Positions 7,281 through 59,213 of a stretch of 60,190 nucleotides of DNA are shown in pieces. The first letter of the stretch is position 1. Every line of letters begins with the position of its first letter. The notes beneath the pieces were generated by a model. That model searched no databases, had not been told where the DNA came from, and was given only the letters and a program-made list of their open reading frames with translations. The stretch comes from a virus. Both the position numbers and the translations under genes were made by a program. Location: the IMG/VR virus record IMGVR_UViG_3300049448_000391; one strand, 5' to 3'.

Positions 7281-7293
7281 ACCAAAGTGGGCC
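7261..7293. repeat. Two exact CCAAAGTGGGCC 12-mers, 21 bp apart
   Basis: 7261-7272 and 7282-7293 read directly; they sit at the start of the 320-bp gap before the packaging genes. Confidence 0.85.
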
Positions 7294-9618: not shown

Positions 9619-9624
9619 GAAACC

Positions 9625-13147: not shown

Positions 13148-13852
13148 ATGGCTGGAGAAGCACCGGCCGTAGGCGCACCTGCGCCCGCGGCACCTGTTGT
13201 CGAAACGCCCGCGCCCGCTGCTCCGGCAGTCGTCGCGGCACCGCCTGCGGCTCCCGCCGCACCACCGCCTCCGGTTGCTGCAGCACCGGTCGCGCCTGCG
13301 GCGCCGCCTCCGGTTGTCGTCGCGGACAACAGTCCGTGGCTCAGGGGCAGGCTCGAACAGCAGGCGCGCTCGACGATCGCAGAACTGCTCAGGGAGGCCG
13401 GCGCATCGAGCGTCGAAGAAATCAAGGCCGCGATGAAAGCGGCCGAGGACACGAACGCGCTCCGCGCGCGACTCGAGCATCTCGAGGGCGACGCGAAGAC
13501 GAATGCGGATCGGGAGATGGCTGCGCTCACGGAAACGCATCGCGCAGCCGTGACTGGTTTGCTGGGAGATCTAGGTCTCAAGGCGGACGATCCGATTTCG
13601 CAACTGCGCGCGATCGCGAAACTCAGGCCGACGTGGGCAGCGACAACGTCTGTCGCTCCGACGACGACTCCTACTGCACCGGCAGCGCCCGCTTCTCCAG
13701 CAACGACGGCGCCCCCACGCGCCGCGCCTGCTCCGACAACGACAACGCCAGAGGATCACAAGACGATCTGGCGTGACCTGCAGAAGACCGATCCGGTCCG
13801 CGCAGCGAAATACCTCAAGCAACACCAACGACTGATTTTCCCGACGCAGTAG
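13148..13852 (+). CDS. Scaffolding-like protein
   Basis: 234 aa, Ala/Pro-rich ends and a central helical region, directly upstream of the capsid gene. Confidence 0.5.
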   Translation: MAGEAPAVGAPAPAAPVVETPAPAAPAVVAAPPAAPAAPPPPVAAAPVAPAAPPPVVVADNSPWLRGRLEQQARSTIAELLREAGASSVEEIKAAMKAAEDTNALRARLEHLEGDAKTNADREMAALTETHRAAVTGLLGDLGLKADDPISQLRAIAKLRPTWAATTSVAPTTTPTAPAAPASPATTAPPRAAPAPTTTTPEDHKTIWRDLQKTDPVRAAKYLKQHQRLIFPTQ

Positions 13853-13896
13853 CTCGCGATCACCGCGCGCTCTGACATCGGGGGAGGCGAAGCTCC

Positions 13897-14994: not shown

Positions 14995-15413
14995 TGGCTC
15001 GCGCACCGGTCAAACTTGCCGGCGGGTCCGGCAACCTCAACACTCTCGTCGCGGGCACGATCACGGGAGGGACGGCGATCACTCGCCAGCTCTTCCGTGC
15101 CGGCTCGCTCTCGGCGGAGTTCGCGCTCACCGCGGCAACGGCGACGATCCAGCTCTTCGCCGTCTGGCAGGTGTCGCACGACAACGTCACCTGGATCACG
15201 ATGGTCCAGGACCAGGCGAACGTCGCGCCCGTCGCCATCACGACCGGCACCGCGGCGATCGTCACGGTCTCCGTGCCCGCTCCCCGCGGGTGCGAAGGCT
15301 ACGAGTACGTGCGTGCGGCCGTGAAAAACACGGTGGCCACCGGCGCAGCCGGCGACCTGTACGCCTTCACGTACGACTTCGAGGCGCGTCAGAGCTTCGA
15401 GAACCAGTACTGA
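14994..15413 (+). CDS. Hypothetical head protein
   Basis: 139 aa; TAATG overlap with the capsid stop. Confidence 0.55.
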   Translation: MARAPVKLAGGSGNLNTLVAGTITGGTAITRQLFRAGSLSAEFALTAATATIQLFAVWQVSHDNVTWITMVQDQANVAPVAITTGTAAIVTVSVPAPRGCEGYEYVRAAVKNTVATGAAGDLYAFTYDFEARQSFENQY

Positions 15414-15425
15414 CGGGAGGCCCTC

Positions 15426-16028
15426 GTGGCTCTCCTCACCTCGGAGATCGCGCGCTGTAAGTTCGAGCTCGGGTACAACGTCCTCACGATCGGGGCTGAA
15501 CCGTTCATCGGCGTCAGCATCGTCTTCGAGGGCGTGATCCAGAACAACGTGTCGGCCGGCGCCGTCACGTCGAGCGCGACGCCAGTCACGGCGGCAACGG
15601 CGGCGACGCCCGTCACGCTCACCCTCGCGGTCGGCACGGGCTTCGCTACCGGGGCCCGCGTCGTCATCGACGTGGACGACCGGCAGGAGGTCGTCACCGC
15701 CGAGCTCGTGGCCGGAACGGCGCTGACCGTGCTCCTCACGAAGGCGCACGCAGGCACCTACCCGGTCACGGTGGACGGCGGCGAGACGATCGTCCGCGAG
15801 TGCCTGCAGCTCATCCGCGTCTACAAGGACGAGCTCGCGCGTACGTTCGGCACGGGCTCGCTCGCGCAGGTCGACGAGATCAAGTTCTTCCAGACGCGCG
15901 GGAACACGGCCTTCGACAACCTCTGCGCTCAGATCGACTGGGCGCGTGACGAGCTCGCGGCCGCGCTCGGAGTCGTGAACCTCCGGAAGATGAAGCGTAG
16001 CGCCGGGTCCTCGATCTCGATGTACTGA
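15426..16028 (+). CDS. Hypothetical head-tail connector-region protein
   Basis: 200 aa, GTG start after GGGAGG. Confidence 0.55.
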   Translation: MALLTSEIARCKFELGYNVLTIGAEPFIGVSIVFEGVIQNNVSAGAVTSSATPVTAATAATPVTLTLAVGTGFATGARVVIDVDDRQEVVTAELVAGTALTVLLTKAHAGTYPVTVDGGETIVRECLQLIRVYKDELARTFGTGSLAQVDEIKFFQTRGNTAFDNLCAQIDWARDELAAALGVVNLRKMKRSAGSSISMY

Positions 16029-16031
16029 GCG

Positions 16032-16490
16032 ATGCCGACCCCCGCCGACATGCGAGAGCGCTTCAAGCGGCTCGTCTGGCGGTACCGGCATATCCCCGGC
16101 GACTACGGCCTGCGTCCGTACACTGTTGACCTCGTCAGCACGACGTGGACGGGCGCGCAAGCCGGCGAAGGCGCGCGCGTCGCGACCACGATTCGGCTTA
16201 CCGAGGCGAACGGCATCGGTCCGAAGGTCCGCTACCTCAAGAGTGAGGAGCTCGCGCTCGGCAATCTGTCGGCGGGCTCGATTGTGATCGGGCCCATCAC
16301 GCCCGACTTCACGCTCGGCGGAACCACGATGGCGGCGCTGATGGCGCAGGCACTCGCCGCCGGCGGCACGTTCCACGTCGTCATCACGGGGCCGCTCGAG
16401 CCGAACGGCACGCGCTTCGTGCCCACGGACTTCGGCGGCGATCACGCGCTCCACTACAGCGTGACCGCGAGTCCTGTCGGGCCGCTATGA
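16032..16490 (+). CDS. Hypothetical connector-region protein
   Basis: 152-aa ORF; its stop overlaps the next start. Confidence 0.55.
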   Translation: MPTPADMRERFKRLVWRYRHIPGDYGLRPYTVDLVSTTWTGAQAGEGARVATTIRLTEANGIGPKVRYLKSEELALGNLSAGSIVIGPITPDFTLGGTTMAALMAQALAAGGTFHVVITGPLEPNGTRFVPTDFGGDHALHYSVTASPVGPL

Positions 16491-17275
16491 CGGATTCCCT
16501 CTTCCAGACGCTCGGCTCGATGCGGTTGCCCACGAAGGCGACCGACGTCGACCCCGTAGCGCTGACGCTCGCCCCGCTCGATCCCGCGCGCGACGCGATG
16601 CTCGCCCTCTTCAAGGCGGCCATCAACGCCGAACTCGGTCCCGCGTGGGCCGTCGTGCAGGCGGCCGAGCCGACGCTTCCGGTCACTCCCGTCGTGGACA
16701 CCTGGCCGGGCGAACCGAGCCCGGAGATCGTCCTCCAGAGGAAGTGCGCATTCCCGTGCTTGTTCCTCGCGCGGAGCGGCGTCGGCAAGATCAACGACTA
16801 CTCGCTCGCGCGAAAGCAGCTCACCCAGAAGTGGGGCCTGCACTACATCATCGCTCCAGTCGAGGTCGGCGACGTCCGCAAGATCGGTGACGTCCTCGTC
16901 CGCGTCGGCGGCGTGATCCTCGCGACGATCGAGCGCGGTGGCCACCCGGCGTACCTGAGCGGCTCGAAAGTGCTCGGCACGGTCGGGCTCTCGATTCTCA
17001 ACCTAGAGACGATCCAGGCCGGGCAAGCGAAGTTCGCGGCGAGCACGCCGGACGTCCAGGCGCCTACCTACCATGCGCTCTCCTGCGAGCTCGAGTCGGT
17101 CGAGATCGCGAGCTGGGTGCCTGGCACAGCGACGCCCTACGGCGGCATGAGCCTCTCGCTCGGCACCGGCAATCAGGACGGCGTGATCGACGCGCTGCTG
17201 AACGTCGACTCCGAAGCACCCATCCAGGCCTTCCCGAAGCTCGACGCGACGGCCGTCGGCAGGACCTTCCCGTGA
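16487..17275 (+). CDS. Hypothetical connector-region protein
   Basis: 262-aa ORF with ATGA overlap. Confidence 0.55.
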   Translation: MTDSLFQTLGSMRLPTKATDVDPVALTLAPLDPARDAMLALFKAAINAELGPAWAVVQAAEPTLPVTPVVDTWPGEPSPEIVLQRKCAFPCLFLARSGVGKINDYSLARKQLTQKWGLHYIIAPVEVGDVRKIGDVLVRVGGVILATIERGGHPAYLSGSKVLGTVGLSILNLETIQAGQAKFAASTPDVQAPTYHALSCELESVEIASWVPGTATPYGGMSLSLGTGNQDGVIDALLNVDSEAPIQAFPKLDATAVGRTFP

Positions 17276-17727
17276 AACTCAACGTCGGCACCCTCCGCGC
17301 CGACCACGACCGCTTTCTCTCCGCGCACTCCGCGATGGTCGCGGGCGTCATGTACGACGCGGGCGTCGTCGCTCTCGCCGAGGTCGCGGTCCACTCAGGA
17401 TTCAAGCCCGAATCGGGCAAGCTCCAGCAGGCCACGACGACGCGCGTGATCCGGACGTCCGGCGGCAAGCTCCTGCGGATCTCGAACGCGCGGCCATACG
17501 CTCGAGCAATCGAACTCGGCGCGAAGCCGCACAAGATCGTCGCTCGCAAGTCGAAGTTCCTTCGGTTCTACGGCAAGGGCGGCGGGCTCACGTTCCGCCG
17601 CTCCGTCAATCATCCGGGTAACCGCCCGTACTGGTTTCTTCGCAACGCGACGCAGGTCGCGGCCTCTCGTGCGGAGCTGATGCTCCTCGCCGGAATGCAA
17701 CGAGTCGCCCGCAACGCGGGCCGCTGA
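17272..17727 (+). CDS. HK97 gp10-like neck/tail-completion protein (putative)
   Basis: 151 aa; ARPYARAIELGAKPH and NHPGNRPYWFL resemble the gp10 family. Confidence 0.45.
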   Translation: MKLNVGTLRADHDRFLSAHSAMVAGVMYDAGVVALAEVAVHSGFKPESGKLQQATTTRVIRTSGGKLLRISNARPYARAIELGAKPHKIVARKSKFLRFYGKGGGLTFRRSVNHPGNRPYWFLRNATQVAASRAELMLLAGMQRVARNAGR

Positions 17728-41997: not shown

Positions 41998-42510
41998 GTG
42001 GCCGAGCTCCCGCCCATCACTTCCCCCGTCGCGTTCCTCGGATGGGCCGTTGCTGGGCTCGGTGCCGTCGTCGGGCTCCTCTACCGCAATGCCGAGAAGG
42101 CCCGAGACCGCGAGCTCGCGACGCTCCGCGAGGCGCACGCGGGGGAAGTCGCGTCCCTGAAGGCGCAACTCGACGAATCCCGCCGGCGGGAGGCCGAGCG
42201 CCGAGACGAACGGGACCGGCTCGGTCGGCTCTACGACGAAGAGCGAGAGGGCCGAGCGCGGGACCTGGAGAGGATGGCGCGCGCCGTGGCTCTCAGGACC
42301 CCGCCAGAGGCCGCGAGGAGCGTCGCGACCGACTGGGTCGAGCTGCCGACGGGGGTGCATGACCGGCTCGACCTGGTGGCGCAGGCGCTCTCCCCAGTGC
42401 CGCTCCCGGAGGCCGAGGAGCGTAGGCTCGCGCGTTATGCCGCCGGAGACCCGCTCTCGACGCCGCCGGAGGCTCCGCGGCGGCCGCGATTGCCCTCGCG
42501 GTCGCGCTGA
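41998..42510 (+). CDS. N-terminal TM plus coiled-coil protein (i-spanin-like candidate)
   Basis: GTG 41998; VAFLGWAVAGLGAVVGLLY then a charged helical region; last gene before the terminator. Confidence 0.45.
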   Translation: MAELPPITSPVAFLGWAVAGLGAVVGLLYRNAEKARDRELATLREAHAGEVASLKAQLDESRRREAERRDERDRLGRLYDEEREGRARDLERMARAVALRTPPEAARSVATDWVELPTGVHDRLDLVAQALSPVPLPEAEERRLARYAAGDPLSTPPEAPRRPRLPSRSR

Positions 42511-42569
42511 ATATCCCCGACGCCATCCCCGCCCCCATCCGCCGTCGCTCCTACGTGGGCGGCGCCTTG

Positions 42570-42606
42570 CCCCTCTCGCTTCACGGCGGGAGGGGTTTTG
42601 CTTTTG
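42570..42606 (+). terminator. Intrinsic terminator of the rightward late/lysis operon
   Basis: CCCCTCTCGCT-TCAC-GGCGGGAGGGG (11-bp stem with 2 G-U pairs) followed by TTTTGCTTTTG. Confidence 0.8.
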
Positions 42607-42683
42607 GTACGGCCCTCAGCTCCGCCAGCGTCCCGTTCGTGATTGGTTCCGGGGACTGACTCCCGACGTGACGGGGTGAGTCG

Positions 42684-42727
42684 GAGTAGCTGTTACCCAC
42701 TGCTTCACGGCGCGGGATTGGTCTTTC
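42684..42727 (-). repeat. Junction element R1 (outside any gene)
   Basis: Minus strand: GAAAGACCAATCCCGCGCC-GTGAAGCAGTGGGTAACAGCTACTC. Confidence 0.7.
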
Positions 42728-42737
42728 GTGGGCGCGC

Positions 42738-42953
42738 TCACCTATTGGCCTTCCGTTTGATTTCCTTCTTGACCGCCTCAATCGCTTTCGTGAGCCGACG
42801 CTGGTCCGGCTCCTGCTCGATGCCGCCGAACATCCAGCCGTCGCGCTCTGTCAGCTCGTGGTCGAGCATTGCGAACAGCACCCGGTAGACGTACCGACGA
42901 GCTTGCGCTTGCGGCCGCAACCCGTCGCGCCCGTTGAACTGTAGCTCGGTCAA
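42738..42953 (-). CDS. Hypothetical small protein (71 aa)
   Basis: TTG start 42953 overlapping the stop of a 19-codon mini-ORF (TTGA); last gene of the leftward arm. Confidence 0.5.
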   Translation of the reverse strand: MTELQFNGRDGLRPQAQARRYVYRVLFAMLDHELTERDGWMFGGIEQEPDQRRLTKAIEAVKKEIKRKANR

Positions 42954-43009
42954 GAGACCGCCTCTCTCGTGACGGGCTTCGCGCGAGTAGCTGTTCTTTG
43001 CTGCTTCAC
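42950..43009 (-). CDS. 19-codon mini-ORF (VKQQRTATRAKPVTREAVS)
   Basis: Starts at the GTG of junction element R2 (GTGA overlap) and stops on the next TTG start. Confidence 0.3.
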   Translation of the reverse strand: MKQQRTATRAKPVTREAVS

Positions 43010-43025
43010 GGGGCGCGGTCCTTTC
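42985..43025 (-). repeat. Junction element R2
   Basis: Minus strand: GAAAGGACCGCGCCCC-GTGAAGCAGCAAAGAACAGCTACTC. Confidence 0.75.
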
Positions 43026-43374
43026 TGCCTGGCTCCGCGCTACCCCGATCCGGAGTCATCCAGTCATCTAAGGTGAGCATCTGCTCGCGGAATTCTTCGG
43101 CGTGCATCACGGCAAGCGCGACCAAGCCCTTGGTCGCCAGCTCGACGGCGAACTGCAATGAACCGAGAGATTTAGAGACCGTGAGCGCCTCGAACGGCGT
43201 AAGGGTGGGCACCGGGTATGGGTTTGGCCCGTAGGCGCATTCCACGATCATTTTGTGCGGCGGCTCGAAGGACGGACGCAATCCGTAACCGTCAAAATAC
43301 CAGCGCAGCCTAGGTGGAGGGATTGTCTCCGGCATGTCTGACTCCGCCGGGTCTGGGATGTCTTGCTGCTTCAC
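43006..43374 (-). CDS. Hypothetical protein (122 aa)
   Basis: GTG start in R3; begins VKQQ and ends GRKDRAP inside R2. Confidence 0.55.
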   Translation of the reverse strand: MKQQDIPDPAESDMPETIPPPRLRWYFDGYGLRPSFEPPHKMIVECAYGPNPYPVPTLTPFEALTVSKSLGSLQFAVELATKGLVALAVMHAEEFREQMLTLDDWMTPDRGSAEPGRKDRAP

Positions 43375-43383
43375 GGTTGCACC
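43364..43383 (-). repeat. Junction element R3
   Basis: Minus strand: GGTGCAACC-GTGAAGCAGCA. Confidence 0.7.
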
Positions 43384-43610
43384 GCAGTTTTATCGGGCGT
43401 GCAGACTTGAATCCGAACTACCTGCCCAGGGTCGTCGCGGAACCAGCAGAACCTCTCCCGCGGCCAGTGGACATAGAAGTGCTCGGGGCCGGCGCCGACG
43501 AACCGAGCGACGGTGAGCACAGTGTTGTTCGCCGTCCAGAAGAGCGTTTTCACGTCGTCGTAGATGACCTGCGCGGTGCTGTCGTCGCGGTATAGAGTGA
43601 GGCGTCTCAT
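43371..43610 (-). CDS. Hypothetical protein (79 aa)
   Basis: ATGA overlap upstream; ends TAVQP inside R3. Confidence 0.55.
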   Translation of the reverse strand: MRRLTLYRDDSTAQVIYDDVKTLFWTANNTVLTVARFVGAGPEHFYVHWPRERFCWFRDDPGQVVRIQVCTPDKTAVQP

Positions 43611-43867
43611 CGGCCGCGCTTACGCTCCTGCTCGGTCATGGGTCGCGGTGGCCCGTAATTGTGCGGCGCATCGGGATTGTCGAAAATGGTGTGACCGGGT
43701 GGAACCTTGCAAGGGTCACTAAACCCCGAAGATTGGCTGTCGGCACTACACCGTCGACACGTTCCGTCTCCGCTCCACTCGTGTTGCCATGCCGTGGGTT
43801 CCTGGGTCAACGAATCGGGTGGTTGCATGATGGGCTCCTTCGGGTCTCTGGTTTCGTGTTGCTTCAC
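43607..43867 (-). CDS. Hypothetical protein (86 aa)
   Basis: GTG 43867 in R4 (GTGA overlap); begins VKQHETRDP (alternative ATG at MQPPDSL). Confidence 0.5.
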   Translation of the reverse strand: MKQHETRDPKEPIMQPPDSLTQEPTAWQHEWSGDGTCRRCSADSQSSGFSDPCKVPPGHTIFDNPDAPHNYGPPRPMTEQERKRGR

Positions 43868-43884
43868 GGCGCACGATCCTTTCC
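43857..43884 (-). repeat. Junction element R4
   Basis: Minus strand: GGAAAGGATCGTGCGCC-GTGAAGCAACA. Confidence 0.75.
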
Positions 43885-44211
43885 GTACCTGATTCTCGCG
43901 ACCTCGCTCTCGAAGAACTGGTCCAACGTCTGCACGACGTTCGGTCCGAGCCGAGTGCACTCCGCGGCTATTTTGTCGGCCATCTCTTCGGGCGTCTTGC
44001 GGTTGCGCGCCACTTCTTCGGCGATCTCGGTGAGCGTGCCCATGACGGAGTCGAGCGCGTGGTCGAGGCATTGCGACGTGACGACGTCGCCGAACTCCCG
44101 ACAGCGACGCCAAACGCACCCGCAAGCGGAAGGATTGGGTGGAGCGATCCAGGAGAGATTCCCCACATCGGTATCCACGAGTCTACGGACTGCCGGTACC
44201 TGTTGCTTCAC
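43864..44211 (-). CDS. Hypothetical protein (115 aa)
   Basis: GTG start in R5; begins VKQQ and ends YGKDRAP inside R4. Confidence 0.55.
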   Translation of the reverse strand: MKQQVPAVRRLVDTDVGNLSWIAPPNPSACGCVWRRCREFGDVVTSQCLDHALDSVMGTLTEIAEEVARNRKTPEEMADKIAAECTRLGPNVVQTLDQFFESEVARIRYGKDRAP

Positions 44212-44220
44212 GGTTGCACC
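44201..44220 (-). repeat. Junction element R5
   Basis: Minus strand: GGTGCAACC-GTGAAGCAACA. Confidence 0.7.
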
Positions 44221-44318
44221 TCAATCATGGTCTACCTAGACCCCGGGCCGCGGTAAAAAAGTTGATCCGTTCTGGCCCTTTTCCCTGGCATAAGGCGACC
44301 CCCTTGCGTCGCCCTATT

Positions 44319-44347
44319 TGTTGGCTTCATTCGCGCGGGTCCTTTCC
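44319..44347 (-). repeat. Junction element R6 (diverged, ATG version)
   Basis: Minus strand: GGAAAGGACCCGCGCGA-ATGAAGCCAACA. Confidence 0.6.
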
Positions 44348-44662
44348 GAGAGCCAGGACCACGTCCTCGACTAGCTTGTCCTGACCATCGAGCGCCGAAC
44401 GGCGTCGCCGAAGGTACTTCGCGTACCAAACAAGAATGTCTGGCATCCACGCGAGCACTCCTCGCTCGACACGATCAAAGCAACAGTCGCAGACCACGAG
44501 ACCGGCAAAATCAGCATGCGAAACGCTGTCACCGTCATACACACCACGAGCATCCTCGCCCTCGTTGTACTTGCCGCCGCACAGTCCGCACGTGATATCT
44601 CCGTACGTGCCGGTTCCCATCCCGTTGCCGAACAATGATGTCGAATCTTCGATGCGCGACAT
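44327..44662 (-). CDS. Hypothetical Cys-rich (zinc-binding-like) protein
   Basis: GAAGGAG SD; ITCGLCGG...VVCDCCFD; ends LGKDPRE inside R6. Confidence 0.55.
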   Translation of the reverse strand: MSRIEDSTSLFGNGMGTGTYGDITCGLCGGKYNEGEDARGVYDGDSVSHADFAGLVVCDCCFDRVERGVLAWMPDILVWYAKYLRRRRSALDGQDKLVEDVVLALGKDPRE

Positions 44663-44677
44663 TCAGGTAGCTCCTTC

Positions 44678-44737
44678 TCAAAAGACCAGCGGTCCCGTGC
44701 TCCGCTCTTCGCGGCCTGCCGTGCATCCGTGCTTCAC
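44678..44737 (-). CDS. 19-codon mini-ORF (VKHGCTAGREERSTGPLVF)
   Basis: Starts at the GTG of R7 (GTGA overlap) and stops 15 nt before the ATG at 44662, just ahead of its SD. Confidence 0.3.
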   Translation of the reverse strand: MKHGCTAGREERSTGPLVF

Positions 44738-44740
44738 CGC
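44727..44740 (-). repeat. Junction element R7 (core only)
   Basis: Minus strand: GCGGTGAAGCACGG. Confidence 0.5.
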
Positions 44741-45018
44741 CCACCCCGCTTCCGTTTCGCCACCTTCGCGGCAGGCAGGGCGCGGAGGCAGAGGAGGAGC
44801 CGAGTCCGGGCCGTCCCCTCGGTGTCCGCGTCGCATCTCACTTCGTCGTTGTTGCGATAGGCGATTGCGATTGCGAACCCGCCCGTGGCGCAGTCGGTGA
44901 CCGTGACGCCAGCGCGGGGGCCGAACGCGCGCTTCGCAGCGGCGCAGAGAGCGGATAGCGATGGGGGGCGGGGCGGGGTCGAACGACTGTCCGCGCGTGA
45001 TCGATTCGGGGCGATCAT
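44734..45018 (-). CDS. Hypothetical protein (94 aa)
   Basis: ATG 45018, 2 nt after the upstream stop; the track ORF to 45222 is an extension overlapping the upstream gene. Confidence 0.45.
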   Translation of the reverse strand: MIAPNRSRADSRSTPPRPPSLSALCAAAKRAFGPRAGVTVTDCATGGFAIAIAYRNNDEVRCDADTEGTARTRLLLCLRALPAAKVAKRKRGGR

Positions 45019-45020
45019 CG

Positions 45021-45683
45021 TCACAGTCGTCCTTCGAGCACCGCGAGCTCCAGCGGCGTCATGTGCCATTGCGCTTCGACGGTGAAGAACCCGCCGCCGA
45101 TGTGTTTGAGCAGGAACGGATCCGGGTCTGGCGGACGCTTCTCCCACTTCGGTTCCCACAAGAGGTAGCGCTCGGTGAGACCGCCCAGCGTCGGACGGAA
45201 CCTCGGCGGGATCTGCGGGCACACCGCTCGCGCGTCACGGAGCCTCAGCAGCTTGTTCCGTTCACGCCATTGCCAGTCACGGATCTCCGCCGGGAACAGG
45301 TTCGACGGGATGCGAGCATGAGGCTCGGAGCGCATGCGGTTCGCGTCATCCAAGAAGACCAGGGAATCGCCATCGAACGAGAGCCCGACGTGCTTCGCGT
45401 CGGCGCGCACGATCGCGAGCTTCGGCAGGAACGTCACCGGGTCGAGCCCGGCCTTGCGCATGACCATCGGTAGAGAGAGCACCGTCTCCTCGCGACCGAG
45501 CGCGCAGAACGCCTTGTGCAGCGCCGCGTCCTCCTTGTCTTGCGCGTCGGGGTAGCGAACGCGGCGACGGGTATCGCCCTCGCCGGTGAAGCGCGCCTCT
45601 CGGTCGTCGCGAACCTTGCGGCCGTATTCGATCGCCTTGTCGCGAGCGGCGTACTTGTCCATTTTCAGGGTTTCTAGGTTCAT
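45021..45683 (-). CDS. Hypothetical protein (220 aa)
   Basis: GGAGGAA SD before ATG 45683 (MNLETLK...); ATGA overlap with the upstream stop. Confidence 0.6.
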   Translation of the reverse strand: MNLETLKMDKYAARDKAIEYGRKVRDDREARFTGEGDTRRRVRYPDAQDKEDAALHKAFCALGREETVLSLPMVMRKAGLDPVTFLPKLAIVRADAKHVGLSFDGDSLVFLDDANRMRSEPHARIPSNLFPAEIRDWQWRERNKLLRLRDARAVCPQIPPRFRPTLGGLTERYLLWEPKWEKRPPDPDPFLLKHIGGGFFTVEAQWHMTPLELAVLEGRL

Positions 45684-45889
45684 GGTCTTCGGTTCCTCCG
45701 CGGCTTCCTGCCGCTGCGTTCTTTCTTCGCTGCGTGCCGGTACGTCTCGACTTTCACGTGGCCGCTGCCGGGCGGGCACTCCTCGCAATAGAGGGCGTGA
45801 CCGGTCGGCTTGCGCCCGACGCTGCACGGCGTACTGCAGCGGACGCAGACCGCGACATGGATCACTTGCGGGATGAGGGCGGAATTCAT
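45680..45889 (-). CDS. Small zinc-ribbon-like protein (69 aa)
   Basis: MNSALIPQ...CVRCSTPC...CEECPPG; ATGA overlaps at both ends. Confidence 0.5.
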   Translation of the reverse strand: MNSALIPQVIHVAVCVRCSTPCSVGRKPTGHALYCEECPPGSGHVKVETYRHAAKKERSGRKPRRNRRP

Positions 45890-46047
45890 CGCCGGAACAT
45901 GTTTCCCATCGCGGTCATGAGGGCGCCGATGACGACGACGAGGCCTCCGCAGATGAGCCACGGCAGCCACGCCCACGTGATGTCGTGCCGCACGGCCACG
46001 AAGAAGAGCGCGACGACCAGGAGCCAGGGGAGGAGGCGGGAGGTCAT
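45886..46047 (-). CDS. Small two-TM membrane protein (53 aa)
   Basis: MTSRLLPWLLVVALFFVAV...WLICGGLVVVIGALM; ATGA overlap with the methyltransferase stop. Confidence 0.5.
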   Translation of the reverse strand: MTSRLLPWLLVVALFFVAVRHDITWAWLPWLICGGLVVVIGALMTAMGNMFRR

Positions 46048-46831
46048 GCGGCCTCCTGCGCGATGAGTTCCCGGATCACCCATCCGACGACCTCAGCGCA
46101 CTGCGGAACAACGGCGTTTCCCAGACAGTGGAGTCGGGAATCGACCAGTCCGTCGAGAAGCCCATCAACGCCTCGACGAATTGCGGGTTCAGGTCCACCG
46201 TCGGCGAGCCACTCGGCCCAGGCGGAAATGTCGTCGGGCCCAGGTGGGAACCGGTGGGGATCCGTAGCACCGCGTCCGAGAGCGACGTCCCCGGGTGCAT
46301 CACGTCCGTCTTCGTCGTGACTCGGCCCGAGCGCTTCGAGTCCGTCACGACCGGCGTGGGCCACGATGAAGATTCGTCCACGGCGGTGCGGGGCGCCGAC
46401 ATCGCTCGCTCGCAACGGGATCGGAAGGCTTTCATAGCCTCGCTCTGCCAGGTCTCCTCGGACGGCATCGACCCAGCGATTCGGTCCGCTGGCGACGTTC
46501 TCGATGACGAGCCAGTCGGGGGCGAGCGCCGAAGCGATTCGAGCGAACTCAAAGTAGAGGCCGCTTCGAGCACCAGTGAGGCCAGCTCCCTTGCCGGACG
46601 AGGAGATGTCCTGACAGGGGAAGCCGCCGCAGAGGAGATCAATGGGGGGGGCTGGTGTCGCCGGCAGATGTCGCGGACATCGTCGAACCTCCTCGTGGTG
46701 GGCCAATGCCGCGCGAGCACGCGGCGACAGAACTCGTCTTGCTCGACCTGCCAAAGCACCGGACCGAGCCCGGCGCGTTCGAGGCCGAGCTCCAGCCCGC
46801 CGATGCCGGAGAAGAGGGAACCGATCTTCAT
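46044..46831 (-). pseudogene. dcm: DNA (cytosine-5)-methyltransferase with a disrupted reading frame (frameshift at a C8/G8 tract; possibly more)
   Basis: ORF 46076..46831 holds motif I ([11 protein letters not shown]); ORF 46044..46754 holds [23 protein letters not shown] and LGNAVVPQ. The switch coincides with G8 at 46644-46651. Confidence 0.7.
46644..46651. repeat. G8 (C8 on the coding strand) homopolymer at the methyltransferase frameshift point
   Basis: Counted directly; one extra C would fuse ...RRHQPPP to [12 protein letters not shown] in frame. Confidence 0.9.
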
Positions 46832-48454: not shown

Positions 48455-49294
48455 TCAGTTCTTGTCTTCGTTCTTCTTCTCGACGCCCTCGGCCTCGATG
48501 AGGCCTTCGCGCTCCATGGCCTCCGCGATGACGGGATCCATGGTCGCGAGAAGCGACGTCCCGATCTCCGGTGCCTCGTCGAGTGCGGTCGCGAGCGCGA
48601 TCCGTTCCGTCGACTTCGGCATCCAGCGGAAGTGGGCGCGGACCGCCGTCTTCAGGCACATGGCCGCGTAGTCCGTCACCCACGGTCCCGACTTCGCCGC
48701 CGGGGAGCGGTCGCGGCGGGTGTTGATCTCGGCGATCGAGAGGACCGTGAACTGCTTCCGGCCGTCCGGTGTCACCGACACCGCGTAGGCGTGCGTGATC
48801 GGCTTCGCCTCCCGATCCGGCGCGTCGCTCTGCACGTGGTCGACGCTCGGATCCGTGCCGAGCTTCACGCGGAAGTCGTCGCCCTGGCGGACGAGGTAGC
48901 CGTACACGGTGACGCCCGCGCGCCCCGCGAGCTCGAGCATCCCCTGATAGCCGAGCTGCAGGGTGCACTCCTTCTTGCCCGTCTTGTTGTTCTGCCTGGG
49001 GATCAGGTAGGCGAGCCCGAGCGGCGTGTTCGGTTCGAGCCCGAGCTGCGCGCACGAGAGAACGCACCCGACGAAGGACGCCTGCGTGCACTCCGCGAGT
49101 TCCGGGTTGATCCGGATCGCAGTGAGAACGATTCGCGCCATGCGGTCGCCCGTCATGTGCTTCGGGAGCGCGAGCGCGATCTGCGGCGTCATCTTCTGGA
49201 TGATCTCGGCCATCTTGTCGCCGGGCTTCTTCTCCTCGGTGCGGGGAACGATCTGCCCGGTCTTGTCGGTCTGGGGGGTGGACATGGGATTCAC
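48455..49294 (-). CDS. recT: RecT-family single-strand annealing protein
   Basis: ASFVGCVLSCAQLGLEPNTPLGLAYLIP, LGYQGMLELA, KTAVRAHFRWMP blocks are typical of RecT; GTG 49294 in GTGA overlap (or ATG 49285). Confidence 0.85.
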   Translation of the reverse strand: MNPMSTPQTDKTGQIVPRTEEKKPGDKMAEIIQKMTPQIALALPKHMTGDRMARIVLTAIRINPELAECTQASFVGCVLSCAQLGLEPNTPLGLAYLIPRQNNKTGKKECTLQLGYQGMLELAGRAGVTVYGYLVRQGDDFRVKLGTDPSVDHVQSDAPDREAKPITHAYAVSVTPDGRKQFTVLSIAEINTRRDRSPAAKSGPWVTDYAAMCLKTAVRAHFRWMPKSTERIALATALDEAPEIGTSLLATMDPVIAEAMEREGLIEAEGVEKKNEDKN

Positions 49295-50247
49295 TTTCCT
49301 TTGGGTTGATGCAGTCGCAGCACTCGGAAGCTGTTCGCCGCCACGGTGAACTCCCTCCGGTGTTGCAGCTTGTTCGAGAACGAGCGCCCGTCGGTCATCA
49401 CGCCGACTTCGGCGGCTCCGATCCCGGCGCGCACCTCGTTCTCCAGGACGTCGATCCGCTCGGCGACGCGCTTCCGGTCCGCCTTCAGGCGCTCGAGCTC
49501 GTCCGCTACGTCGCGCATCGTGCCCGGGAGCACGACGACGCCGTGCCCTTCCGGGTAGAGCGCCGTGAGCGCGCGCCGTGTCTCCTCGCTACCATCCGGA
49601 GCGGGCACGTCGCGGGCCTGGACGCGCTGCCAGAAGCGTTCGCCGTGGTAGACGATCTTTCGGATCGTCACCTCGTCGCGCGGCACGTCCGCCCACACCA
49701 TGCGGTTCCCGCCGAGGAGCGCGGCGATCGTCGCCCGCTGCGCGCCCGTTACGAGCATCTGCTGTTGAACCTGGAGGAAGTAGTGCGGCGGCGGACCGTC
49801 GACCCACTCGTCCCCCATGAAGCTCGAAACGTTCTTCACCTCGAGCGGCCACGCCTCGACGTCGTTCGCCGCGTCCCAGGTCTTCCCGTCCAGCGTGCAC
49901 ATCGCCCACGGATGCGCCGTCGAGCGGAGGAGGAGCCCGTCCTTGCGCGTCCGTCTTCCAGTGCGCTCCTGGTACGCCTCGATGACGCGATCCTCGAGCT
50001 TGAGTCCCCAATAGATCGCCTCGACGTCGGACAGGTCGCGCTCGTACGCGCCGGTCTTCTTCGCATAGAGGGCGAGCGCGCCGCCCCATGCCCTCGGGGC
50101 TTCGCCGAGTGCCATGGCGATCTCCGAGGCGCCGATCCCCGAGTGACGATGGCGGAGCCAGCTCTCGCGATCGTCCGTCGTGCACACGAGCTCGCAGTGC
50201 GGGCTCTCTGCTTCGATCACACGGCCGGCTTGCTGCGCTGCGCTCAT
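49291..50247 (-). CDS. YqaJ/lambda-Exo-type recombination exonuclease
   Basis: ATG 50247 in ATGA overlap; GIGASEIAMALG, PLEVKN (E.K) and HYFLQVQQQM blocks; paired with recT. Confidence 0.8.
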   Translation of the reverse strand: MSAAQQAGRVIEAESPHCELVCTTDDRESWLRHRHSGIGASEIAMALGEAPRAWGGALALYAKKTGAYERDLSDVEAIYWGLKLEDRVIEAYQERTGRRTRKDGLLLRSTAHPWAMCTLDGKTWDAANDVEAWPLEVKNVSSFMGDEWVDGPPPHYFLQVQQQMLVTGAQRATIAALLGGNRMVWADVPRDEVTIRKIVYHGERFWQRVQARDVPAPDGSEETRRALTALYPEGHGVVVLPGTMRDVADELERLKADRKRVAERIDVLENEVRAGIGAAEVGVMTDGRSFSNKLQHRREFTVAANSFRVLRLHQPKGK

Positions 50248-50747
50248 GATGCTTTTTGCTCCCGTGGGAAGTTGAGGACCGCGAATGCTCCGAAGAAGTG
50301 CATCGCCGCGGCGTCCCACACGCGCGCCGCGGCCTCCTCGTCGAGGAAATACCCGAGCCCCATCTTCTTTCCGGCGGACTGGATCTGAGCCTTCCAGCGC
50401 GACGTCGGCGCGTACCAGGACACGCCGATGAAGCGGCTCGTCTTACGGCCACCGCGCACACGGTTCTGCGCATTCTGTGCGGCCGTGGCGAAGCGTAGGT
50501 TCTCGCGGCGGTTGTCGAGGCCGTCACGATTCTTGTGATCGACGCGCTGCCCGCGAGGCGCCGCGAGGATGGCTCGGTGCATCGAGAGCGTCGCGCGGCG
50601 GCCGTCGGGGCGCTTGATGTTCCGGATCGCGTACCAGGCGAGACCCGGCGGCATTATCACCGCGTGCCAGCGGTGCTTTGCCAGCTCCGGATAGTCCTCG
50701 TCGTCGACGAGCGCGACCTTCCCCTGCGTGAGAACGATCTCCCTCAC
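50244..50747 (-). CDS. HNH endonuclease with AP2 DNA-binding domain (homing-endonuclease-like)
   Basis: VDHKNRDGLDNRRENLR...AQN (HNH) followed by SRFIGVSWYAPTSRWKAQI...GYF...AARVWD (AP2). Confidence 0.8.
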   Translation of the reverse strand: MREIVLTQGKVALVDDEDYPELAKHRWHAVIMPPGLAWYAIRNIKRPDGRRATLSMHRAILAAPRGQRVDHKNRDGLDNRRENLRFATAAQNAQNRVRGGRKTSRFIGVSWYAPTSRWKAQIQSAGKKMGLGYFLDEEAAARVWDAAAMHFFGAFAVLNFPREQKAS

Positions 50748-55858: not shown

Positions 55859-56727
55859 CCCGATGGCTCGATTCGCTCATCCCGACGCACGACGCGGGCA
55901 CGGTGGAGTGTTACCTCGACTACGCGCGGTCGCACTGGTTCCCGTTCTTCTCGGGGATGCAGTCGGTGACGGACGCGGAGTGCGACCGGTACATGCGGGC
56001 GCGACTCTCGAAGGTGCAGGCGACCACGGTCAAGAAGGAGCTCTCGGCGCTCCGCGGCTTCACGTCGTGGGCGACAGCGAAGCGGCTCATCGGGCCGGTC
56101 GTGGTGCCGACGGTGCCGAAGCGATCGACGGGCGCGACGTATCGAAACGAGAACGGCGAGACGGTGCGACGACGAGCGGCAGCGATCCCGATCTCGCCGA
56201 AGGAGGCGCGCGCGATCCTCGCCGGGCTTCCCGAGCGGAGCACCAGCAAGAAGGTTCCGGAGTTTCCGATCCGCGCTCGGTTCGAGGTTCAGTACGAGAC
56301 GGGGCTACGGCCCGAGCTGATCGATCTGCTCTCGGTGCCGGAGCACTACCGCAAGAAGGCGACGCACCTTCGGATCCCGGGCGAGCTCGACAAGGCACGG
56401 CAGGCGCGACGGGTCCCGCTATCGGCGGCGGCTCGGAAGGCGCTCGACCGGGTCTGTCCCGAGAAGGGTCTCATCTTCGGGCACCACGACTATCGGGAGC
56501 ACCTGAAGCTCGCGGCGGCCGACGTGCTACCAGCGGAGCGGGCAGAGCTCTTCTGCGGGGCTCACTTGCGGTCAGCGCGGATCACGCACTGGCTCGACGA
56601 GGGGGCGCCCCTCACGGGCGTGATGCGACTCGTCGGGCACACGCGTCTCGAGACGACCGCGAAGTATGTGCGAGCCTCGGACAAGGTGGCCGAGGAGATT
56701 GTCGCGCCGAAGCGCCGCCGTCGTTGA
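55630..56727 (+). CDS. int: Tyrosine integrase
   Basis: ETGLRPELI (R), HLRSARITHW (H..R), GHTRLETTAKYV (H...Y); arm-type N-domain YTVRFWWQGREIERSTG; its stop is 1 nt from the tRNA 3' end. Confidence 0.85.
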   Translation: MARPSSGWKLRPPRDKCGSYTVRFWWQGREIERSTGTADPERAASEAARIYAREVSRPEQRRPVQVRAVGELEESVTRWLDSLIPTHDAGTVECYLDYARSHWFPFFSGMQSVTDAECDRYMRARLSKVQATTVKKELSALRGFTSWATAKRLIGPVVVPTVPKRSTGATYRNENGETVRRRAAAIPISPKEARAILAGLPERSTSKKVPEFPIRARFEVQYETGLRPELIDLLSVPEHYRKKATHLRIPGELDKARQARRVPLSAAARKALDRVCPEKGLIFGHHDYREHLKLAAADVLPAERAELFCGAHLRSARITHWLDEGAPLTGVMRLVGHTRLETTAKYVRASDKVAEEIVAPKRRRR

Positions 56728-56728
56728 G

Positions 56729-56812
56729 TGCTGACGGTCGGGGTCGAACCGACACGCCCTTGCGGGCACCAGCTCCTGAAGCTGGCGCGTCTGCCAATTC
56801 CGCCACGTCAGC
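56729..56812 (-). tRNA. tRNA-Leu(CAG): tRNA-Leu (anticodon CAG), full length, no encoded CCA
   Basis: Folded by hand: acceptor GCTGACG/CGTCAGC, 3-bp D-stem, anticodon stem CCAGC/GCTGG with loop TTCAGGA, long variable arm GCCC-GCAA-GGGC, T-arm GTCGG-TTCGACC-CCGAC, discriminator A. Confidence 0.9.
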
Positions 56813-57112
56813 GTTTCTGGGAGAGCAGCCCCTCGGATTCCCGGGAGACCACGCTTTCGATCGGTGTTTCCTCTCAATCCGTCAAGAACCTGAATCTAAT
56901 GGGTTTTTCGGAATCGTTGAGGAATCTGCCGACGAAGTAGTGCGAGCGCATCTGAGAATCTCGGAAGCCCTCCCGGTTACTGGGAGAGTCTCCCGGGAGA
57001 GTCGACGAGGGTACCACGCGGTCGCGAAGGCCCGCCTCTCCCTCGCCGCCGCCCGCGTATCGGCTGCCCTCGCCTGGTCGGCCCTCGGCCTGCCCGCGCT
57101 CCGGAGGGTCGC
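56813..57112. other. Candidate attP arm region
   Basis: Non-coding, less GC-rich; CTGGGAGAG at 56817 and 56980; TCCCGGGAGA at 56839 and 56991; GAATC(T/G) at 56892, 56911, 56922, 56956. Confidence 0.4.
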
Positions 57113-57589
57113 ATGATACCCCTCCGCCGCGGCTACCCGCACGACGAGTCCGCCCGTCGCGCCCGGATGATCAACCTCGCCGGCAAGCAGGTCGGTCGCT
57201 GCGTCGTCGTGCGCCTCTCCGAGAACAAGCGCCTCGGCGCCCGCTGGATCCTCCGCTGCCAGTGCGGCAACGAGTTCGAGGTTCTCGGGTTCAACGTCCG
57301 CGACGCGGGACCGAACTACGCGTGTCCGACGTGCCGCCCTCGCGGGCGCCGTCCGGTCCGTAGCCCCATCCACTGCACCGAGTGCGGCTCTGGTGGCCAC
57401 AACCGCGCGACGTGCCCGCGACGAACGATGCCCAGCAAGTCGCCGCTCGCGTGCTTCGGGTGCGCGGGCCTTCCGCATCGGCGGCCGAAGGATGGGTGCG
57501 TTTGCGGCGGCCGCTACGCCCCCGAGGCGCCCGTCACGATCGACGACGTCATGGCCATGCCGGCGAAGGCGCCGAGGGAGTGCGCGTGA
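57113..57589 (+). CDS. Cys-rich protein with a CCHC zinc-knuckle-like motif
   Basis: CQCGNEF...CPTC and CTECGSGGHNRATC (C-x2-C-x4-H-x4-C). Confidence 0.55.
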   Translation: MIPLRRGYPHDESARRARMINLAGKQVGRCVVVRLSENKRLGARWILRCQCGNEFEVLGFNVRDAGPNYACPTCRPRGRRPVRSPIHCTECGSGGHNRATCPRRTMPSKSPLACFGCAGLPHRRPKDGCVCGGRYAPEAPVTIDDVMAMPAKAPRECA

Positions 57590-58170
57590 AACTCGCCGCC
57601 GCGATCCTCCTCGTGATCTCGCACTGGGATCACGCCTGCTATCCGGTCGACACCCCGCCGCCCGAGACCGTCGGCGAGTTCCAGATCCGGGAGGAGACCA
57701 TCGCGGAGGCCGACGCGGAGATCGCCGAGGAGGTCGCGCAGCCGTGGGGCGTCACGATCGTCGCCGCCGGCGTCGCGGTCGTCTTCCACTCGGAGAGCCG
57801 GTTCGATTGGTACATTCACGCGGGCGTCCCGCACCCTGATCCGTCGCACCACGAGGATCACGGGCTCGCGCGGTGCATGGGCTCGCTCCATGCGAACAAG
57901 CTCCTCTCGCACGACGAATGGCTCGGGCTCGCCGGTACGAGCCTCGAAGCGACGACGCGCTGTGCGCTCCGTACGGCGCTCGCCCTTCGTTCGTCGCACT
58001 GGGTCTGCGCGCACGACCTCCCGCCGAGCGAGTACGCGATGGCGCTCACGCTCGAGCACTACGCCCGCGGGCACTGCGCGGAGCCCGGCACGGAGTCGTG
58101 GAAGCGCGCGGCGCGGTGGATGCGGACCGCGAACCGAATCGGCGAGCTCGTAAAGGGGAGGCATAGCTGA
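57586..58170 (+). CDS. Hypothetical protein, weak lytic-transglycosylase-like motif
   Basis: GTGA overlap; hydrophobic N-terminus; VFHSESRFDW (E-S) block. Confidence 0.35.
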   Translation: MKLAAAILLVISHWDHACYPVDTPPPETVGEFQIREETIAEADAEIAEEVAQPWGVTIVAAGVAVVFHSESRFDWYIHAGVPHPDPSHHEDHGLARCMGSLHANKLLSHDEWLGLAGTSLEATTRCALRTALALRSSHWVCAHDLPPSEYAMALTLEHYARGHCAEPGTESWKRAARWMRTANRIGELVKGRHS

Positions 58171-59213
58171 TGGGCGCAACGCCGATCGAATGGACCGACT
58201 TTTCGATCAACCCGCTCCGCGCGCGTCTCCGCGACCGCGTCGGGCACTACTGCGAGAAGGTCTCGCCGGGCTGCAAGAATTGTTACAGCTCGCGCCTGCA
58301 GCCCCGTTTCGGGCTCCCGCAGTTCCAGGAGCAGCGCGGCAACGCGGACGTGAAGAGCTTCCTCGACGAGACGAAGCTCCACGAGGTCCTCCGCCGCCGG
58401 AAGCCCACCAAGTTCTTTTGGTGTGACATGACCGACATGTTCGGGGAGTGGGTGCCGGACGAGGCGATCGCGATGTGCTTCGCGGCGATGGCCGCGACGA
58501 CCTGGCACACGCACCAGGTCCTCACGAAGCGCGCCGACCGCCTTCGCGAGATCGTACCGAAGCTCTACGCGAACGACGGCGCGATGCTCATCGAGGCCGC
58601 GGAGCGACTCGCGCCGCAGATCGACGCCTGTCACATCGGCGAGGACGATTGGAAGTTCCCGCTCCCGAACGTGTGGCTCGGCGTCTCCGCGGAGGACCAG
58701 GCGCGAGCGGACGAGCGGATCCCTGATCTCCTGGCGACGCCGGCTGCTGTGCGTTTCGTGTCGGCGGAGCCGCTCCTAGGACGGGTGAACCTCGAGCGCG
58801 TCCTCTGGACGCAATGCGAGCGCTGCGGTGGTTCCTGCTCCGTCCCCGTCCCAGGAGGCGGCCGCCCGTGTCCCGCATGCCTCGAGCACCAGGGTTTCCA
58901 GCGCGGCGGTCTCGACTGGGTGATTGTTGGCGGGGAGAGCGGACAGCAGGCGCGTCAGTGCGATATCGCGTGGATCCGTTCGCTCGTCGAGCAGTGTCGT
59001 TCCGCTGGCGTCGCCGCGTTCGTGAAGCAGCTTGGGGCGAAACCGGTCCCATTGAAGCCGATGCGGCTGCCCTCGTGGAACGCGTCCACCGGCAAGCCGC
59101 ACCGAGGGTGGATCGACGACACCCATCACGCGTTGTCCGACTCGAAGGGCGGCGAGATCACGGAGTGGCCCGAGGACCTCCGTGTTCGCGAGTTTCCGGA
59201 GGCGCACCCGTGA
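58170..59213 (+). CDS. Phage Gp37/Gp68 family (DUF5131-like) protein
   Basis: N-terminal IEWTDFSINPLR...VSPGCKNCYS and the later FVSAEPLLG and VGGESG blocks are typical of this family. Confidence 0.75.
   Translation: MGATPIEWTDFSINPLRARLRDRVGHYCEKVSPGCKNCYSSRLQPRFGLPQFQEQRGNADVKSFLDETKLHEVLRRRKPTKFFWCDMTDMFGEWVPDEAIAMCFAAMAATTWHTHQVLTKRADRLREIVPKLYANDGAMLIEAAERLAPQIDACHIGEDDWKFPLPNVWLGVSAEDQARADERIPDLLATPAAVRFVSAEPLLGRVNLERVLWTQCERCGGSCSVPVPGGGRPCPACLEHQGFQRGGLDWVIVGGESGQQARQCDIAWIRSLVEQCRSAGVAAFVKQLGAKPVPLKPMRLPSWNASTGKPHRGWIDDTHHALSDSKGGEITEWPEDLRVREFPEAHP

Follow-up and report, generated by a model that had tools for sequence, protein, structure and literature searches.

How do small genes that share no ancestry come to carry almost the same few letters at their boundaries, and what could those letters do there? 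The question is raised by the IMG/VR virus record IMGVR_UViG_3300049448_000391, a 60,190-nucleotide (nt) stretch of DNA that we refer to as the window. The genome is phage-like, novel and about 67% G+C. A leftward block of non-structural genes, presumably expressed early, has its far end in the minus-strand region 42600-45020, which holds an array of seven small genes (42738..45018, minus strand) whose proteins belong to no database family. An original prediction, made from the letters alone, noted a recurring minus-strand motif at nearly every gene boundary of this array and offered three options, namely a portable cassette boundary, a shared site for translational coupling or for a regulator, and a relic of serial duplication of one gene start. 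Comparison of the motif across phage contigs indicates that it is probably the invariant core of a portable junction of about 110 nt, which would couple the translation of successive genes and bound exchangeable, promoterless cassettes.

The recurrence itself is real. The motif CCGTGAAGCARCA, that is CCGTGAAGCA(R)CA, has four exact matches in the window, all on the minus strand (42999-43011, 43364-43376, 43857-43869 and 44201-44213), with their GTG codons at 43009, 43374, 43867 and 44211, and diverged copies accompany them. Allowing up to two mismatches to CCGTGAAGCARCA gave 12 matches in the window versus 2.4 expected, a count that none of 100 shuffled sequences reached. A profile built from related copies in other contigs recovered six window copies, all on the minus strand and within 42652-44752, and zero elsewhere in the 60-kb window. 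A repeat finder stretched the similarity among the window copies to 45-48 nt. The block of about 30 nt described in the original prediction is part of the element, whose full extent is about 110 nt.

Pattern scans located the element in many uncultured viral and metagenome contigs of 60-69% G+C. All fetched loci together hold 216 unique copies in 76 viral or metagenomic loci, numbers that come from core-seeded scans, in which diverged copies are under-counted and the invariance of the core is somewhat inflated. The profile was built from 66 copies and seeded by regex-selected matches. The comparison loci, designated L001 and so on, are all metagenomic fragments, and genes in this high-GC DNA were called by simple third-position G+C rules. 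In no locus do copies occur on both strands, whether among the metagenome loci (0 of 62) or among the loci collected before them.

A search of viral contigs with the 115-amino-acid (aa) protein of the array gave zero matches. Its homologues P0016-P0020, with 70-83% identity, lie in otherwise different contigs (L012-L018), which carry the same junction at several gene boundaries and in both flavours distinguished by the original prediction. Another set of loci, L002-L011, was reached via a neighbouring 219-aa gene (47-72% identity). These have the layout of the window in common (an integrase, the 219-aa gene, a few small genes and converging lysis genes), with different small genes, and a profile search found zero motif copies and no array in them, from which we conclude that the array is accessory. 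Absence of the motif from relatives, which had been named as a point against the prediction, is therefore seen in L002-L011, yet the motif has 216 copies in 76 loci. When bacterial and archaeal genomes (185,579 representatives, one per species) were scanned with the single sub-pattern CCGTGAAGCA-N25-CCCGTCAC, the 38 matches were all single, random-looking and without a consensus in their flanks, and no host or prophage was found.

The copies align without gaps and at fixed spacing (GTGAAGCA-N25-C..CAYG). About 35 nt ahead of the core there is frequently an upstream block, (T)AGGTGAGCGCGCC. The tail follows, made up of the last 12 or so codons of the upstream cassette. It is purine-rich, contains a block resembling a Shine-Dalgarno (SD) sequence, AGAAAGGA or GGTG, and varies in its end (..GGAAAGGAYCGNGCGCC, ..AAAAAGNCNNCGGTGCAACC, ..ATGAAAGACCAANCCCGCCCC, or GGAG..CGCGAAG ahead of an ATG core). 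In the core, the TGA stop of the upstream gene overlaps a GTG start, and CCGTGAAGCA is identical in 162 of the 216 copies. The core opens a leader, which forms part of the downstream cassette. It has the pattern GTGAAGCA-N25-C(C/G)(C/G)R.CAYG and runs into one of three endings. Ending T2, AGAGAGG(C/T)GRTCYNTTGACC, comprises an SD sequence, a 7-nt spacer and a TTG, ATG or GTG start that overlaps the TGA of the leader. Ending T1 (..GGAGG..CTCCACCTA) continues in frame into the next protein, and ending T3 reads ..TCTTTTGAGARGGAG-N-ATG.

The CTCCACCTA block of T1 lies after the leader, at a fixed offset of +55, in 35 of the 216 copies, among them the window copy R3 (43312-43320). It is read (S/A/P)-P-P and uses the rarer proline codons CCT and CCA, while CCG dominates in gene bodies. 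The block resembles the 3' tail of 16S rRNA, as an anti-SD mimic would, and could be a polyproline stalling site.

The signals within the junction are those of translation. Of 71 copies that could be assessed, 52 have a best upstream coding frame whose stop is precisely the core TGA. GTG is the commonest core codon (175 copies), ahead of ATG (28) and CTG (12). Among the 12 CTG copies, 10 offer an in-frame ATG exactly three codons upstream (ATGGCACCCCTGAAGCA), a compensation that would be pointless unless the leader frame had to be initiated. Leaders of exactly 19 codons are present in 49 copies (23%), and every one of them ends in NTGA (TTGA 38, ATGA 7, GTGA 4). The leader is longer than 30 codons and fused to the next protein in 124 (57%), and closes early in 19 (9%). 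Two 19-codon mini-open reading frames (ORFs) in the window, 42950-43009 and 44678-44737, had been pointed out in the original prediction, and they prove to have a length that recurs across the family. Against a generic 16S tail, which may not be that of the host, the 18 nt that precede the next gene's start in copies with a 19-codon leader form an anti-SD duplex of -12.9 kcal/mol on average, compared with -7.6 kcal/mol before the core start and -4.8 kcal/mol at random positions. The SD consensus AGAGAGG/GAGGTGATCC sits 7 nt before the TTG, and some tails read GAGGTGATCC, a ten-base complement of the generic 16S tail.

Promoter-like signals were absent. The consensus of 83 copies has no -35/-10 pair, and a sigma-70 promoter scan of 42300-46200 gave 0 promoter-like sites. 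A reading of GGTGCAACCGTGAAGCA and TTGACC as sigma-54 or sigma-70 promoter elements was rejected, as their spacing is wrong by eye and the sigma-70 scan is empty. A general scheme of two chained mini-ORFs, the first of 11 codons and placed ahead of the core, was also discarded, because the upstream gene itself reaches the core TGA in the 52 of 71 copies given above.

The genes between the junctions behave as cassettes. Similarity of the upstream halves does not follow that of the leaders, in 83 copies (Mantel r = -0.04, p = 0.89) or in all 216 (r = -0.06, p = 0.98). Among 345 pairs with at least 79% leader identity, upstream identity is 0.36 against a background of 0.37. The leader subfamily TCCCCGAATCAGAAACCGTGC.. 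is preceded by at least five different tails and followed by different genes. The 43864-44211 cassette, which encodes the 115-aa protein, is found in the window, L012, L014 and L016, mostly with 70-100% DNA identity in 30-nt windows, two of which drop to 53-57% in L016. The similarity is limited to the span from the 5' core to the 3' core, and both flanks are at background. Its downstream neighbour is variously the 86-aa gene, a 148/173-aa gene, a Dam methylase or a 70-aa gene. The 71-aa gene of the window recurs in L027 with a different gene before it and further cassettes after it. These two are the only array genes with homologues in other fetched loci, in differing contexts, and most genes between junctions are unique to one locus. 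Locus L044 is about 80% identical to the window over the lysis genes and has different cassettes. Its array also ends with an 'empty' junction that leads into almost nothing, matching the terminal copy of the window. The seven array proteins are mutually unrelated save for their shared extreme termini (all E > 0.7), as had been predicted for the joined ORFs, and scans against Pfam and PHROG matched zero families. The portable cassette boundary, one of the three options offered at the outset, is thus supported by unrelated genes flanked in dozens of phage contigs, by a relocated cassette and by independent halves.

It is the nucleotides, and not a peptide or an RNA fold, that are conserved. Depending on the flavour, one stretch of upstream nucleotides (GAAAGACCAA plus 9 nt) encodes ..KKTKVQP* or MKDQxRP-VKQ. 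Differences among 22 canonical leaders are spread nearly evenly over the codon positions (1503/1775/1821), with 2581 nonsynonymous versus 421 synonymous codon differences. The leader peptide, as judged from these counts, is free of protein-level selection. RNAalifold on 24 canonical copies predicted 0 pairs, and in an unbiased helix scan from -40 to +66 the excess pairing stayed at or below 0.10 for every 4-bp helix. Per 80 nt, the elements fold at -21.0 kcal/mol and the flanking sequence at -27.8 kcal/mol (p ~1e-19). The elements are thus the less folded, and the deficit persists after correction for G+C (+4.5 kcal/mol, p ~5e-15), as expected for a translation-initiation region and not for a structured RNA. 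An Rfam scan gave a single chance-level match (E = 0.45, 15 bits versus a gathering score of 110 bits).

Several hairpins were considered and dropped. A GAGAGA/TCTCTT hairpin had been pointed out in copy R2, where it would sequester the SD sequence. It pairs in 65.8% of cells versus 66.1% in shuffles, and a consensus RNA fold was likewise rejected. A CCGTGA/TCACGG closing stem shows no pairing above expectation. The covarying hairpin suggested for copies R1 and R2 fares no better, since its stem pairs at the shuffled level, RNAalifold finds no pairs and the elements are less structured than their flanks.

These observations suggest how the junction might work. A ribosome that finishes one gene would re-initiate on the overlapping core GTG and translate the leader. 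A 19-codon leader, with an SD sequence in its 3' end, would deliver the ribosome to the NTGA start of the next gene, and in the fused form the ribosome would run straight into the next protein. A newly acquired gene would then be translated whatever its own 5' sequence. As the boundaries are shared, recombination between junctions could add, delete or swap cassettes without breaking expression, within a genome or between co-infecting relatives. The pathway of exchange is plausibly annealing at short homologies of the RecT/exonuclease type, and enzymes of this class are familiar from recombineering as acting on short homologies. The leftward block that contains the array also encodes a RecT single-strand annealing protein (48455-49294, minus strand; Pfam RecT, E = 2.5e-38) and a YqaJ-type exonuclease (49291-50319, minus strand; Pfam YqaJ, E = 4.4e-25). 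The two genes are context and lie outside the repeat, and the pair is a candidate for the machinery of such exchange. We infer re-initiation, the effect on expression and the recombination pathway; the anatomy, spread, strict co-orientation, lack of RNA structure, start compensation, independent halves and relocation given above are observations.

Several points weigh against the coupling junction. The boundary at 43607-43610, an ATGA overlap, carries no element and works unaided, which also means that 'nearly every boundary' was the correct wording of the original prediction. In copies R3 and R4 a conventional GGAG-N6-ATG lies 13 codons downstream, and the core GTG may be unused there. The CTCCACCTA block at +55 in 35 copies is explained neither by coupling nor by cassette exchange. 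The copy counts lean to the core motif, because both the profile and the collection scans were core-seeded. TGAAGCA is more invariant than is needed for a stop/start overlap and a lysine codon, so that another reader of these bases is possible. New combinations of tail and leader need crossovers within about 10-14 identical bases, a small target for annealing of the RecT type, and this hints at a different pathway.

The last two points leave room for rival explanations. The core, or the whole element, could be an operator-like site of a phage or host regulator, for example a DNA-binding repressor that would halt elongation along the array in the way of a stoperator, with coupling and shuffling as side effects. 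The near-invariance of TGAAGCA and the identity of CCGTGAAGCA in three quarters of the copies (162/216) beyond the needs of an overlap would suit such a site, as would the strict co-orientation of the copies with transcription, and the closest published analogues, SAS and ESAS, are themselves suspected binding sites (PMC3203893). A binding site does not, however, predict conservation over about 110 nt with a 19-codon length, NTGA ends and start compensation. The copies are confined to the cassette array and are not genome-wide, no candidate regulator was identified, and we regard the operator as unlikely. The protein that reads the core might instead be an RNA-binding regulator. The original prediction had paired that idea with translational coupling; the coupling half gained ground from the stop/start overlap, the 19-codon leaders, the embedded SD and the start compensation, and no evidence either for or against an RNA-binding regulator was found. 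More doubtful still is a dedicated system of site-specific recombination, in which the invariant 10-bp core would serve as the crossover site and the array as an integron-like platform, with enzymatic excision and insertion of cassettes at the core. The halves do assort independently around a sharp, short core, the cassettes are co-oriented and lack promoters of their own, 'empty' junctions end the arrays of the window and L044, and tyrosine recombinases occur near the arrays in L012, L027, L030 and L037. But the junction has neither an attC-like dyad symmetry or foldable structure nor a GTTRRRY core, and the nearby recombinases of L030 and L037 are homologous to ordinary integrases of element-free relatives. 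The window array has no clear linked tyrosine recombinase, only a weak C-terminal match at 56557-56733 (E = 0.01-0.09). A phage counterpart of the integron, in which CCGTGAAGCA would be the crossover of an enzymatic exchange and each cassette would bring its own translation adaptor of tail and leader, so that a captured gene would be expressed immediately in the operon, is an unlikely prospect, on a par with the operator.

It is highly improbable that leader and tail act as functional peptides, tagging a set of phage proteins at the N-terminus (to direct their targeting, processing or breakdown) and at the C-terminus, with nucleotide conservation as a consequence, even though 57% of leaders are fused in frame and the 115-aa homologues keep a VKQ start and a GK(D/E)RAP end. 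Separate mini-ORFs account for 23% of leaders, and 9% close early; leader differences are mostly nonsynonymous and even over codon positions, and the same upstream nucleotides occur in different frames. Least credible of all, to the point that we give it almost no weight, is the reading of the copies as functionless relics of local serial duplication or of chance. The window copies do cluster inside 2.1 kb, and some pairs are 73-91% identical across 23-48 nt. They are, however, frequently nearer to copies in other contigs than to one another, the halves are shuffled, none of the 100 shuffled sequences reaches the window count, and many samples contributed to the 76 loci that hold the 216 copies. 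The third of the original options, serial duplication of a single gene start, is rejected, since the halves are shuffled and the element occurs in at least 76 loci.

The window copies can be followed along the minus strand, from R7 to the terminal copy R1. R7 (44678..44752; profile E = 6.6e-4) has its core GTG at 44737, where it overlaps the TGA of the 94-aa gene (44734-45018). Its leader is the 19-codon mini-ORF 44737-44678, which ends in TTGA and is followed by GAAGGAG and the ATG at 44662 of the 111-aa gene (44327-44662). The ending is T3-like. R7 had been noted as a diverged copy, and besides the profile match it is 85% identical over 67 nt to a copy in L043. R6 (44330; 44322..44347) reads GGAAAGGACCCGCGCGA-ATGAAGCC at the stop of the 111-aa gene. 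This second diverged copy holds up in part: it is missed by the profile, and yet we consider it a remnant, because 24 nt (GGAAAGGACCCGCGCGAATGAAGC) are exactly common with the junction that starts the homologue of 43864-44211 in L012. The spacer of about 119 nt between R6 and R5 (44232-44330, minus strand) holds a GC-rich hairpin at 44294-44313 (GGCGAC..GTCGCC) and looks like an insertion or a decayed cassette, because the L012 junction enters the 115-aa gene directly. The hairpin scored as terminator-like on the plus strand, and the T-rich stretch CTTTTTTACC comes after it.

R5 (44152..44244; profile E = 3e-10 over the span 44152-44230) is composed of TCTAGGTAGACC, a 6-codon ORF (MIEVQP*) and the core GTG at 44211, and its leader is the in-frame N-terminus of the 115-aa protein (43864-44211), whose homologues P0016-P0020 retain a VKQ or MKQ start. 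R4 (43803..43893; profile E = 1.8e-8; core GTG 43867) has the tail GGAAAGGATCGTGCGCC, which encodes YGKDRAP*. Its leader is in frame with the 86-aa gene (43607-43867), for which an alternative GGAG-N6-ATG start lies at 43828, and it is 76% identical to a related copy in L044. The boundary without an element separates this gene from the 79-aa gene (43371-43610). R3 (43308..43406; profile E = 2.8e-15; core GTG 43374) has the tail GCGGTGCAACC, encoding ..TAVQP*, a leader fused in frame to the 122-aa gene (43006-43374), an alternative ATG at 43335 and the downstream block CCTCCACCT at 43320-43312. R3 and R4 are fused, T1-like copies, each with its alternative GGAG-N6-ATG 13 codons in, and the gene caller preferred these alternative ATG starts on the identical contig L001.

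R2 (42943..43043; profile E = 3.9e-13; core GTG 43009) is a canonical T2 copy. Its tail AGAAAGGACCGCGCCCC encodes GRKDRAP*, and the tail sequence AGAGAGGCGGTCTCTTGA is also found in L019, L033 and L091. AGAGAGG lies within the 19-codon leader (43009-42950), which closes with a TGA that overlaps the TTG at 42953 (TTGA), the start of the 71-aa gene (42738-42953). R1 (42652..42745; profile E = 8.9e-9; core GTG 42708) had been placed beyond the last gene. It is not stray sequence but a terminal junction of full length, whose first bases are at the stop of the 71-aa gene (AGGTGAGCGCGCC), with a decayed leader frame (30 codons) and no cassette after it, and it is 91% identical over 45 nt to a copy in L030.

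The leftward block meets the rightward lysis genes at the terminator hairpin of the latter (42569-42596, plus strand), which was found by a terminator scan and marks the point where both gene blocks converge. About 120 nt past R1, the loop of this terminator holds CCGTGAAGCG, which has 9 of 10 core bases and belongs to a match with two mismatches at 42574-42586. The original prediction had placed the core inside this hairpin. We rejected the loop copy as a family member, as it gives no profile match and is missing from the syntenic terminator of L044; CCGTGAAGCG is probably there by chance, though it could be the last trace of a further junction.

Other genes of the window were noted in passing. 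An HNH endonuclease ORF (50244-50747, minus strand) clusters with the RecT and YqaJ genes upstream of the cassette array. A C-5 cytosine DNA methylase at 46044-46831 (minus strand) is divided between two overlapping frames, with the N-terminal motif FSGIGG in ORF 46076-46831 and the PCQ motif and later parts in ORF 46044-46754. The split may reflect a frameshift, a sequencing error, a pseudogene or programmed frameshifting, and only a 251-aa methylase piece is called on the identical Logan contig L001. A 417-aa ORF (55863-57116, plus strand) has no Pfam match at 1e-3 and matches the C-terminal catalytic region of the relatives' integrases weakly (E = 0.01-0.09); it may be a very divergent tyrosine recombinase. 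A DUF5131 protein is encoded at 58170-59213 (plus strand; Pfam E = 2e-63). Elsewhere, in the related contigs (95% identical) L012 and L027, the arrays are immediately followed by a gene for a 1279-aa protein with a tyrosine-recombinase (Phage_integrase) domain (13496-17335 and 3687-7526, respectively), which is unusually large for an integrase. A special tyrosine recombinase tied to the arrays was considered and rejected for want of a link, as the neighbours are homologues of ordinary integrases. In ERZ27297709, the ENA contig of a relative (with P0010), an IS605 OrfB/TnpB-type gene with a Cas12f-like TNB domain lies at 8561-9808, as an insertion among the lysis-side genes.

How does this junction compare with known systems? 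Integron cassettes, like those between the junctions, are co-oriented, promoterless and mostly of unknown function, and are separated by repeats of about 60-130 nt, such as the highly conserved ones of Vibrio cholerae. As with attC, a short conserved core divides the junction into an upstream part that moves with the preceding cassette and a downstream part that moves with the following one. The junction is built on translation signals, which attC is not. It lacks the attC dyad and the GTTRRRY/RYYYAAC boxes, and its array has no associated IntI-type integrase.

Among phage repeats, the promoter-early stem-loops (PeSLs) of T4-type phages are mobile regulatory cassettes that mediate modular shuffling (Arbiol et al. 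2010, PMC2839356; PMC4122927). In both systems short conserved repeats flank small genes without homologues in variable regions whose content differs between close relatives, the repeat brings an expression signal to the following gene, and recombination between copies is the proposed driver; for PeSLs, mini-circles have been demonstrated (PMC2839356; PMC4122927). A PeSL, however, is transcriptional, consisting of a sigma-70 promoter and a terminator hairpin, whereas the junction has neither and instead bears signals for translation. It is internal to a polycistronic unit and overlaps the ends of coding sequences.

The SAS of Cluster K mycobacteriophages is a 13-bp sequence, GGGATAGGAGCCC, located 3-7 bp upstream of mostly ATG starts, to which ESAS adds 17-bp imperfect inverted repeats (Pope et al. 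2011, PMC3203893). Like the junction, these are asymmetric repeats in a single orientation, at translation starts of non-structural genes from unrelated families in temperate high-GC phages, with an SD-like core, and the function is unproven in both. The junction differs in its length of about 110 nt, its overlapping stop and start, its translated leader, its mostly GTG or TTG starts and its unrelated sequence, and unlike ESAS it has no inverted repeats, with no excess pairing from -40 to +66. Stoperators of Cluster A mycobacteriophages are 13-bp repressor sites that occur genome-wide with unconserved flanks (PMC3203893). They resemble the junction in being short and asymmetric, in lying at the boundaries of genes with a fixed orientation relative to transcription, and in belonging to temperate high-GC phages, while the junction copies are restricted to one array (42652-44752) and conserved over about 110 nt with coding-frame features.

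In its canonical form the junction shares the layout of an engineered element. In the bicistronic design (BCD; Mutalik et al. 2013 as described in PMC5995908), which serves the context-independent expression of arbitrary genes, a leader ORF of fewer than 20 codons contains the downstream SD in its 3' end, and its stop overlaps the next start with a 1-nt frame shift. This layout is exact in R2 and 48 other copies, R7 also has 19 codons, and the 124 fused copies do not show it. Natural termination-reinitiation coupling at NUGA overlaps can be grouped with BCD as the same layout. BCD is synthetic and has its own SD1 behind a promoter, whereas the junction leader starts on the upstream stop, is repeated and is mostly fused.

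A DNA search of 50,697 GenBank phage records, with the array and the first 25 kb as queries, gave zero matches, and the best match of the portal protein has 23% identity, to Komagataeibacter phages, so that the phage group is uncharacterised. A full-text literature search found no description of the junction element, with publication elsewhere possible, and the element is apparently an undescribed family. The closest described kinds are PeSLs and SAS, beside which the junction is a further type of repeat of phage variable regions. Variable regions of small orphan genes hold much of the host-takeover and anti-defence repertoire of phages, and beyond T4-type phages little is understood about how these genes come and go while still being expressed. 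If the coupling junction is confirmed, its profile would be a handle for finding accessory arrays and cassette boundaries in metagenomic phages. It would likewise provide a natural example of the 'bicistronic design' principle of synthetic biology, and a defined substrate for short-homology or site-specific gene exchange between phages. The junction would then be a second and mechanistically different solution, translational and not transcriptional, across many uncultured high-GC phages.

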